64,000 nucleotides of DNA from Octopus vulgaris (Eukaryota). Both the position numbers and the translations under genes were made by a program. Shown here piece by piece: positions 20,598-60,645 of this stretch. Where the stretch lies: positions 53,816,001 through 53,880,000 of the forward strand of contig OX597825.1 of NCBI GenBank assembly GCA_951406725.2, written 5' to 3'. Position 1 is the first letter of the stretch. Each line of letters starts with the position of its first letter. The notes under the pieces were generated by a model that did no database searches, was not told where the DNA came from, and saw only the letters and a program-made list of their open reading frames with translations.

Positions 20598-20671
<74 letters not shown>

Positions 20672-21068
20672 CATTATTTATTCACCATTACACATTTACA
20701 TTTGCTAATAGGAATTCGAAATTTTACATGTCACATAGACATGTAAGGAATTTCGAATTAGAAATTCTTCAGTTACAGAAGTTATATAATTTATGAGCAG
20801 AATTTAGTTTAATTGAAATATGTTTGTCACATATTTCAACTGCTAAAGTCAAATACATTACATTTACCGTGGAGAAAAAATTTCACTTGTTTGTCACATA
20901 TTTTAACTAACCTAAATTCTTCTCATACTTAAAGACAACTTTGCACCTATGCTCCGTTAATTAATTTGATTGGCTGAACTAGTTACGGAAATCAGTCAAC
21001 GTGTTCACTGAATTATAAAGAAAGCTGTAGCTCTATTAAGTTCGTTCAGAGTTGCAACTTTTAGGTAG

Positions 21069-21115
21069 ATCTCATTGACAAGAGTCAAAAACCTCGAAAC
21101 ATCGATGTCTGAGAT
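21069..21115 (+). ncRNA. Type I hammerhead ribozyme, U3:A8 core variant
   Basis: AUCUCA-UUGACAA-GAG-UCAAAAAC-CUC-GAAA-CAUCGAUG-UC-UGAGAU: 6-bp stem I, 3-bp stem II, palindromic stem III, GUC cleavage triplet. Confidence 0.7.
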
Positions 21116-21384
21116 AGATAGTCTCCCTATATTTTTATGAGATATCTTTTAATCACGAGCACTCGATTACTTTTTTTTTTCTGAAAGGGGAAAAATTACT
21201 ATTTGATTTAAAATACAATAGTAATCTTTATTATCTTATCTAAAGACAGAATAACAGAAAGAGAGAGACTATCTCTCTGCAGAGGAAGATCGTTTACAAT
21301 GAGGATCTCATAAGAATGGAAAAGCAAACAACAAATGGGTTGTACCTTATAATGAAACTCTTTTAAGAGCATCCAAATGCCACT

Positions 21385-21755
21385 GTAGAGCTGTAATCGT
21401 TGCTTCAGTGGGGTAAATGAAGCCTTCTGAGTGAATTTAGTAGATGGAAACTGAAAGATAGTTATTGTGAATATTTGTGTGTGCGTGTGTATGTGCGTGT
21501 GCGTGTATGTGTGTTTGTCTGTGTGCCTGTGTGTTTGTGTGTTTGTGTTTGTGTTTACCCATAACCACCGATTGACAACAGGTGATGGTGTATTTATGTC
21601 CCTGTATATTTGCGGTTCAGGAATAGAGTCCGACAGAATAAGAACCATGGTTATAAATAAGTTGTAGTACCGATTGCTTCGACTGAAATAACTTCAGGCG
21701 GTACCCCAGTATGGCTGCAGTGTAATGATTGAAACAAATAACAAAATAAAAATTA
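21385..21755 (+). mobile_element. OR-like SINE, 5' decayed
   Basis: GTAGATGGAAACTGAAAG, (GT)n, TTGACAAC..GGTGTATTTATGTCCC, CCCCAGTATGGCTGCAG. Confidence 0.75.
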
Positions 21756-58199: not shown

Positions 58200-60645
58200 A
58201 TATTTATTAGGTGGTATGATTTCTTGTTTGTATTTGTCAGCTTCCTTAAATACTGAGAACAGTTTTTCGTTTTGCTCGTGATTTGCCGCTATTTGTATCA
58301 GTTTTCCTTCCTTCTGAAGTAGATATTTTTGCAGTCCTATGGTGGTTATTTTATAGTAGTTTTCCAGCTGTATAAGGCCTCTACCACCTTCTATACGTTG
58401 TATATATAGTCTTTCTATGTCAGATTTTGGGTGATGCATCCTAGATCCTGTCATTATTTTTCTTGTTTTCCTATCTATTTTGGTCAGTTCATTTAGTGTC
58501 CAGTTAAGGATATTGTAGCTGTAACTTATAACTGGGACAGCTAAAGTATTAATACCTATTATCTTGTTTTTAGCATTGAGCTCTGTTTTTAGTATTAATC
58601 TAACTCGTCTATAATATTCTTTTTTTATTTTCTCTTTCATTTATGTGTGTTGTGTCTTATCTAGTTCATGGATTCCTAAGTATTTGTAAGTTTGGCTTTG
58701 GTCTAATTCTTTTATTTCATTGGTTTTATCTAGTGTGATGTTGTTACTCTTAACTAGTTTTCCTCTTTTCATGGTTACTTCGGCGCATTTTTCTAATCCA
58801 AATTTCATATCTATTTCTTTGGTAAATTCATGAACTGTCTTTAATAGTGTTTCCAGCTGTTTGTCATTTGCAGCGTATAGTTTTAGGTCATCCATATATA
58901 AAAAGGTGGCTGATCGTTTTGCTGTAACATTTATATCCGCATCCAGTTCTATTTAGCATATCAGGTAGAGGTGACAGTGCCAAGCAGAAAAAAATTAGGA
59001 GAACGTGTCTCCTTGGAATATTCCTCTTCTAATGGGGATGGCTTTGGTTTTCATGAGACCCTCTTTTGTTTGGTGCTGTAGCACTGTTTGCAATTTATTC
59101 ATAGAGTGCCCTATGAATTTTATAATGGTTGGTGCTACTTTGTTAATGGCTAGTGTTTCGAGGATCCATGTGTGGGGGATGCTATCAAACGCCTTTTTGC
59201 AGTCGATCCAGGCCATACTGAGGCCTTTCTTCTTTCTGTGGCTGTCTTCAGTTATGGCTTTATTAATCATTAGTTGATCTTTACATCCATATGAGCCTTT
59301 GCGGCATCCTTTCTGCTCTTCTGGAAACAGGTTGTTTTCGTCCAGGTGCTTGGTCAACCTTTGCGATACCACTGCAATAAATGCCTTGTACATTGTAGGG
59401 AGACAGGTTATTGGTCTGTAGTTTTCTGGTTTTGCTGTCTCATTTGATTTGAGAATTAAGATGGTTTTCCCCTTCGTGAGCCATTCAAGCATTGTCTCTG
59501 GCTCTGCTAGTATGTTGTTAAAGTTTTCAGCCAGCTTTTTGTGCATTCCTGTTAGATATTTCAACCAGAAGTTGGGGATCTTGTCATGCCCAGATGCCTT
59601 CCAGTTGCTTAGTCTTTGCAGTGCCTGGGTGACCTCTTCAGTTGATATGGGGGTCCAAATTTGCTCAGATGCTGAGTTTGTTGCTTTAATACTCCTTTTT
59701 TTTGGTTGTTCGTTCGCCGACCATATTTCTCTCCAGAATTCTTCCACTTCTTCTGCCGTTGGTGCTGCAGTGATTTCTATTTTATTTTTGCCAAGTTCTT
59801 GGTAGAACTTTTGGGGTTGGAGTTGAACTTTTTGTTTTGTTCAAAGAAGCGCTGGCGTTTCTCGTACCGGCGGATCCTTTGTGCTTTGGCAAGGATATCT
59901 TGCTTCAGCTTTTCTTTTTATCTCAGGTAAATATTTTTCTGCGATGGTATATTTGCGGAGTATTTTTGTTTTCTTTTTGTTGCTCAGTAGCGTTGATTGT
60001 CTACTGATTTCATTAAGAATCGACAGATCTTTTCTCATTTTTTGTATTTTGTTTTGGATGTTATTTATCCACAGGGTTTGTTTGGGTGGTGGTACTCCTG
60101 TTTGGATGGGTTTGAGTGAGTATCCAGCTTCTTTTGTGGCTGCAGTGGCTGCTGCGTATACTAAGTCATTTAGCTCAGTGATATCGCTTTTTGTTTCAGT
60201 GGCTATTAGTTCCGTGACGGCTAGGTTTATGCTGTTTATAATTGGCGTTGTTGCTTCGTCTATTTTGATTTTTGGGAGGTATGGTCGGTGGTCCATTTTG
60301 AGCTCTGTGGTTTTCAGTTTTTTGATTATTTTACTTTTTATATTATCATAATCATTAGGCTCCCCTTCGTTGTTTCCAGGTTTTAGCTTTGTGTCGCTTT
60401 CTTTCTTATTTATATGTTTGTTTGCCGTGTTTTGGCTTGCTGTTTGTCGTGTATTATTATGCATCCTTACGGTCTGGGTTTGTTTTTTTTTTTTGTTTAC
60501 ATCGTGTTTGTTGGGAATTTTACGTTTGTCTTCGTGTTTTACTGTTTCAATGTTTATATTATTGGGCATTGTTGTGTGGCTTCTATCTACATTTTCCTGG
60601 TGTATTTTTTCTTTTAGATGTTCTATTTCTATTTCTGATATTTTA
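58200..60645 (-). mobile_element. R4/Dong-clade non-LTR retrotransposon, ~2.4-kb internal segment with RT (frameshifted, truncated at both ends)
   Basis: FWREIW, NWKASGHDKIPNFWLK, ENYRPITCLPTMYK, EQKGC, AWIDCKKAFDSIPH, RGIFQGD, YMDDLKLY, YKYLGI, IDRKTRK, GGRGL; bounded by (AAT)n and (GAA)n. Confidence 0.92.

Follow-up and report, generated by a model that had tools for sequence, protein, structure and literature searches.

The hammerhead motif at positions 21069-21115 of the 64,000-nt stretch of Octopus vulgaris DNA analyzed here (the window) lies in one clipped copy of a 340-nt dispersed, non-coding repeat, and this copy is likely a relic of an animal non-LTR retrozyme in neutral decay (we put the probability of this reading at about 0.86). 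An earlier note, made from the letters of the window, had described the motif as an orphan lying in no repeat; genome comparison overturned this, as the motif sits in a dispersed repeat and both flanks are other repeats. The finding itself matters little: the family has hundreds of copies, of which this relic is one, and neither the element type nor the U3:A8 core is new to the literature. No description of the hammerheads of these octopus families was found in the literature searched, the supplements of the cited papers lying outside its coverage.

A type I hammerhead motif with a U3:A8 core

We read the motif directly and scanned both strands of the window with a descriptor that allowed the four Watson-Crick 3-8 pairs. 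Three helices close the core, with helix I open: helix I has 6 bp (21069-74 paired with 21110-15), helix II has 3 bp and an 8-nt loop, and helix III, the palindrome 21099-21108, has 3-5 bp. The core sequence UUGACAA at 21075-81 carries U3 and A8, GAAA occupies 21096-99, and the triplet is GUC, with C17 at 21109 and the predicted cut directly after it. Apart from the U3:A8 variant, all else in the core is canonical (paired 3-8, G12 A13 A14, A15.1-U16.1, H17). The motif was the sole descriptor match on either strand of the whole window, while 40 block-wise dinucleotide shuffles gave one equally strict match in total (mean 0.025) and 0.3 loose matches per shuffle; it is above chance expectation. 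The helices, core, triplet, and cut position given in the earlier note thus stand as read from the sequence, and helix III is indeed palindromic, with a self-duplex energy of -12.9 kcal/mol. The U3:A8 pair does preserve the 3-8 pairing, and natural U3-A8 is reported in schistosome Penelope-like elements (PLEs; PMC4209133) and in other hammerheads, for which in vitro activity is cited (PMC3088659). Nearest-neighbour folding placed the active fold 4-9 kcal/mol above the ensemble in every copy tested, canonical C3:G8 copies included, so that folding energies neither support nor exclude activity; secondary-structure energies gave no separation of the window copy from intact copies.

The 340-nt repeat family

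Searching the genome of the window (G000, 2.8 Gb) gave 464 candidates, and the 40 that were scored yielded 42 matches at 86-95% identity, excluding the self-match. Nearly all of these 42 matches stop at 21115; other family copies run past it. Across the family searches, first-look candidates numbered 464-1,762. In a consensus of 29 copies the unit is 340 nt long and positions 1-86 recur at 341-425, the unit repeating onto itself without a coding spacer. It is non-coding, has 39% GC, is 62% paired when folded as a circle, and holds one type I hammerhead. A tight motif pattern with 22 fixed bases found 45 exact genome matches (reversed control, 0), from which, at ~10% divergence over the fixed bases, we estimate several hundred ribozyme-bearing copies. 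A miniature element with terminal inverted repeats (MITE) was considered and rejected, as the inverted matches are inverted 5' arms plus an internal palindrome and the unit repeats directly.

Among the loci fetched there was no long array; one of them, L042, is a single interrupted head-to-tail dimer. The interruption (L042:5226-6300, G000:C16) is an insert of ~1.08 kb with one 238-codon frame, for which no Pfam match above the cut-off was obtained, and it is bordered by a duplicated target of 17 bp (unit 180-196), which immediately precedes the ribozyme. Within the window, two older relatives (78-82%) of the family's 3' part lie at 109-201 and 429-530 and have no recognisable hammerhead. Contigs of four sequencing runs (guessed to be RNA) hold family pieces, mostly <95% alike, which have no bearing on expression; the three aligned to the window locus leave 21129-21317 uncovered.

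Anatomy of the window copy

The window copy is a solo partial unit with an inverted arm (Table 1). The outer end of that arm is the family's commonest 3' end (unit 52-53) in the 3'-end distribution. On the other side, the right flank is joined to the end of helix I via a 4-nt overlap, AGAT, which indicates that the clipped end arose by microhomology, at insertion or by a later deletion; in L223 and L224 the sequence continues upstream of the right-flank repeat piece. A 496-nt contig of run X4 runs gap-free, with 13 differences, across both junctions (inversion and right), so the structure is not an assembly artefact.

Table 1. Features of the retrozyme copy and its surroundings, in window positions
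Feature	Position	Strand	Basis
Left flank, from an unrelated dispersed repeat; AT-rich end at the junction	20670..20790		Many genome matches at 83-86%; 85-86% to L036, L037, L039
Inverted arm of the retrozyme copy, unit 293-392	20789..20888	-	90% to family consensus over 100 nt
Inversion junction, 7 nt	20889..20895		By eye matches the loop of the family's palindromic hairpin, opposite strand
Forward arm of the retrozyme copy, unit 19-238, ending with hammerhead helix I	20896..21115	+	86% to family consensus over 220 nt
5' strand of distal (extended) helix I	21039..21065	+	Consensus inverted repeat 162-188/240-267; folds of intact copies
Helix I internal loop, UAG (family, UAC)	21066..21068	+	Family comparison
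Type I hammerhead motif, U3:A8 core	21069..21115	+	Direct reading, descriptor scan, family comparison
Right flank, internal piece of a third, older repeat	21112..21422	+	40 further matches in the genome, mostly 76-86%; L223 and L224 at 73-81% over 323-350 nt

The hammerhead looks minimal at this locus because the copy is clipped at 21115. The window copy is without the partner strand of distal helix I (unit 239-267), has A instead of the family's U at position 1.7 (21116), and has lost the fourth helix II pair through an A-to-C change at 21092. The loop 1-loop 2 tertiary elements of the full-length form are kept in the family (UAC/U loop, CAANNA loop, distal helix I) and are lost or altered here. 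The motif can accordingly be called intact, as had been proposed, for the 47-nt minimal form only; measured against the family, helix II is missing its fourth pair and distal helix I its 3' arm, and there is no UAC/U internal loop. Given the missing sequence 3' of helix I, the window copy would cleave weakly at best.

Form of the family ribozyme and covariation of its helices

In intact copies, helix II has 4 bp and a 6-nt CAANNA loop, and the six helix I pairs are followed by a UAC/U internal loop and a long distal helix. The canonical metazoan type I hammerhead is described as having a 6-bp helix I and a 4-bp helix II with interacting loops, and a short palindromic helix III that needs a dimer (PMC4209133). 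Judged by its sequence, the family ribozyme is a full-length type I hammerhead, the canonical form of retrozymes, and not of the minimal PLE type.

To compare families, we took 24 unselected rows, namely the first 12 matches of each Watson-Crick frame search, in which the pattern leaves helix II unconstrained. Helix II was paired at 84 of 96 positions in these rows, U1.7 was present in 22 of the 24, and helix III was a perfect palindrome in 16, the rows representing sequence-distinct families. Among 17 representatives hand-picked from 70 extracted rows (truncated and decayed rows mostly omitted), each helix position showed at least two pair types; the helix I register in this set is the best available one, so that the test is fairer for helix II and the distal pairs. 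We conclude from this covariation across families that the hammerhead structure is real. The motif might instead be a chance look-alike inside an ordinary repeat that was never a ribozyme, a reading in line with the Rfam scan, which gave no hammerhead family at E<=10 for either the window copy or the intact copy L002, and with the 47-mer's lowest-energy fold, which is a competing hairpin (z = -1.5). However, compensatory changes occur at nearly every helix position across families, and >4,000 exact frame matches stand against 0-2 for reversed controls, which makes a chance origin scarcely credible.

At unit position 199, C4 replaces U4 in a subfamily (9 of 24 unbiased arms); hammerheads are known to tolerate U4C (PMC3088659). 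A family with C3:G8 carries CCGAUGA.

The 3-8 core pair in the family and the genome

The 45 family matches consist of 38 with U3:A8, three with U·G, three with C·A, one with G·A, and none with C3:G8, indicating that the window copy inherited its U3:A8. The pair had been taken for a compensatory change in this copy; it is the family state, and nothing changed here. Genome-wide, a generic frame pattern matched U3:A8 2,024 times, C3:G8 1,367 times, U3·G8 703 times, and C3·A8 141 times (reversed controls: 2, 0, 1, and 0, respectively), the counts being mutually dependent because families share ancestry. Pairs other than C3:G8 make up 2,868 of the 4,235 exact frame matches (68%). As the earlier note had foreseen, a CUGANGA search misses the window motif, and Rfam missed it as well; in practice, most of the genome's canonical-frame hammerheads escape CUGANGA descriptors and Rfam.

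The U3·G8 wobble matches come mostly from homogeneous families with 95-99% identical tandem units, a 354-358-nt period, and otherwise intact helices; examples are L202-L209, including the trimer L202 at G000:C2:198484000-198486300. No description of U3·G8 hammerhead families was found in the literature searched, two key biochemical papers on the 3-8 pair (PMC1986816, PMC2271363) lying outside its coverage, and these young tandem wobble-core families may be new. The superfamily offers young, near-identical, sequence-diverse ribozymes in four 3-8 states, which makes tolerance of the pair directly testable. Tentatively, and at somewhat less than even odds, we suggest that it amounts to a natural mutational scan of the 3-8 pair, with young, tandem, still-amplifying U3·G8 families and with repeated switches between A8 and G8 at a constant U3. 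If so, full-length dimer-type hammerheads would tolerate a wobble where Watson-Crick pairing has been held necessary, and A-to-I editing or CpG decay might drive the A8/G8 switches. On a tree (43 rows of 120 nt, unrooted, a non-random sample), the U·G rows lie among the U:A rows (at least four forced changes) and C:G forms one clade, so U·G as an intermediate from C:G to U:A was not supported; two C·A rows adjoin the C:G clade.

Preservation and decay

Decay was followed in an unbiased set of 29 loci that were picked by a segment outside the ribozyme, with the query locus dropped. Twenty arms in this set span the motif and carry 2-10 differences each (mean 5.2). Differences affect 117 of 1169 motif positions (10%) and 24 of 316 core positions (7.6%), and other regions differ at 6-16%; by these figures, family decay looks neutral, as expected after insertion. 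The window copy has one difference in the 47 motif positions versus 38 in 273 elsewhere (Fisher p = 0.026, uncorrected), and its motif is more intact than those of all 20 unbiased arms. The claim that it is better preserved than its surroundings is therefore nominally right, but the motif was chosen for looking intact. The chance of at most one motif difference is 0.04-0.10 per copy, so that among several hundred copies tens of equally intact ones are expected, and the window copy is surpassed in completeness by three others among those fetched, in which the whole motif, loop included, is kept.

These figures bear on whether the window copy is a cis-acting ribozyme retained or domesticated in a host transcript; the earlier note had suggested retention or domestication. 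The contrast between the motif and the rest of the copy is the sole result favouring retention, although the presence of the locus with both junctions in another data set (the X4 contig) also fits; the contig's divergence from the window locus, 2.6%, is too close to gauge constraint. The high copy number and the neutral-looking divergence, an outcome that the earlier note had set as refuting domestication, speak against it, as do the expected tens of equally well-kept copies and the three more complete ones. In addition, the window copy has lost what a full-length hammerhead requires to cleave fast, and no host gene emerged among the 15 ORFs scanned of 145 listed in the window, the only Pfam match being a reverse transcriptase. 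The domesticated intronic hammerheads of amniotes (RECK and others; PMC6155905) are likewise type I and derived from retroelements, but they are described as occurring in few copies, conserved across species, and lying in host introns, whereas the octopus copy is a decaying fragment of a multi-copy repeat flanked by other repeats. Taken together, we regard retention or domestication as very unlikely. The reverse-transcriptase fragment lies at 58998-59840 on the minus strand (Pfam RVT_1, E 1.1e-14) and is probably a LINE.

Insertion footprint and Penelope-like elements

Family copies often end in (TA)n-type microsatellites. Among the 29 unbiased loci, 12 have an inverted 5' arm, 22 a microsatellite end, and 11 more than one unit. 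The 3' ends of 37 of 45 arms fall at unit 39-86. No pile-up of 5' ends was seen at the cut site (unit 233) among the 45 arms; ten of them start at unit 242-257, that is, 9-24 nt downstream of the predicted cut and within the 3' strand of the long hairpin, possibly from stalling in that hairpin. The insertion footprint described for PLEs comprises 5' truncation, partial tandem copies, an inverted 5' copy, and microsatellite targets, and Hydra-clade PLEs are reported to insert into (TA)n (PMC8557442). The octopus family shows this footprint, and RWK, DKT, and CxCX5C, motifs of the Hydra-clade PLEs, occur in long open ORFs of the genome. A Hydra-type Penelope-like enzyme is thus a candidate, and a candidate only, for the mobilising partner.

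Alternatively, an autonomous PLE, its coding copies by now rare or lost, might have left the repeat as a solo terminal repeat (pLTR). Besides the shared footprint, U3:A8 hammerheads are found in schistosome PLE repeats (PMC4209133), and retrozymes are reported to be related to pLTRs (bioRxiv 10.64898/2026.07.22.740005). Against this, no coding spacer separates the self-repeating 340-nt units, no shared ORF flanks the family copies in 40 loci and 8 longer loci, the intact PLEs checked have a different motif and no sequence in common with the family, and the family motif is canonical rather than minimal. A non-exhaustive search of 44 Penelope-like loci found no autonomous element sharing sequence with the family, and no PLE ORF was enclosed by copy pairs 1.4-5.5 kb apart. 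A pLTR origin is therefore improbable. On C29, a sister-family copy lies downstream of a Penelope-like ORF, but this ORF turned out to be its insertion target, the arrangement being one event in a segmental array and absent from 38 other PLE loci.

The loci L134-L142 (e.g., G000:C4:96403500-96412000) are young Penelope-like elements with open frames of 900-984 codons and Hydra-clade motifs. Upstream of their ORF, a CUGAUGA...GAAA motif whose helix II is long can be seen by eye, and a whole protein of this type gave no Pfam match.

Relation to known retrozymes

The family fits the description of a retrozyme, a non-coding unit of 150-450 bp with low GC and one type I hammerhead, and the head-to-tail arrangement of at least two hammerheads is found in the L042 dimer, in the copies of more than one unit, and in dimers and trimers of sister families. 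The metazoan non-LTR retrozymes described in PMC7229834 (coral; mussel, 350-390 bp; axolotl, 330/350 bp) are alike in their ~340-nt non-coding unit with GC <45%, in their single type I hammerhead of canonical form, whose helix III is short and palindromic, and in head-to-tail repetition and a strongly self-paired predicted circle. The octopus family differs from them in its U3:A8 core and U4/C4 subfamily split, and in that its copies are mostly dispersed inserts, from partial to 1.4 units, with inverted arms instead of long arrays. The metazoan retrozymes are reported there to be expressed as circular RNA, whereas the octopus family is known here from DNA copies.

The PLE pLTR hammerheads, the U3-A8 variant of Schistosoma mansoni among them (PMC4209133), share with the octopus family the U3-A8 covariation (~1,300 matches there, mostly single motifs), a dimer-type helix III, and dispersed copies with opposite-strand neighbours. 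They are described as minimal, with a long helix II, a loop 1 that is not well defined, and repeats that flank an RT ORF; the octopus family, in contrast, lacks an ORF and combines a conserved UAC/U loop with helices I and II of 6 and 4 bp. The vertebrate non-LTR retrozymes reported by Li, Clavereau and Pollet (bioRxiv 10.64898/2026.07.22.740005), in whose text no molluscs were seen among the taxa, also occur as dispersed solo monomers, dimers, and multimers, and PLE mobilisation is proposed for them. That study reports pLTR homology for 24 of 57 Xenopus families, versus none found for the octopus family; one of nine predicted retrozyme dimers cleaved in vitro.

On the retrozyme reading, a tandem master locus would be transcribed, two hammerheads would pair through the palindromic helix III and cut after C17, and the unit-length RNA would be ligated into a circle. 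A Penelope-type reverse transcriptase/GIY-YIG endonuclease would then nick (TA)n DNA and prime near unit 40-86, and copying round the circle or along a multimer would leave inserts of 0.3-1.4 units with inverted 5' arms. A circular or multimeric template, as has been proposed for retrozymes (PMC7229834; PMC4209133), is needed to explain copies longer than one unit that continue through the cut site. The window copy would have lost, or never received, everything 3' of helix I. With a candidate (TA)n-targeting Penelope-like partner, the genome offers a setting for testing how retrozymes are copied into DNA.

Sister retrozyme families are young, with 98-99% identical copies and dimers and trimers at a 353-365-nt period. 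One of them, at L029:160-880 on the minus strand (G000:C6), has a 365-nt unit, 98-99% identical copies, and 2,212 candidates, and it shows the same architecture and a U3:A8 core.
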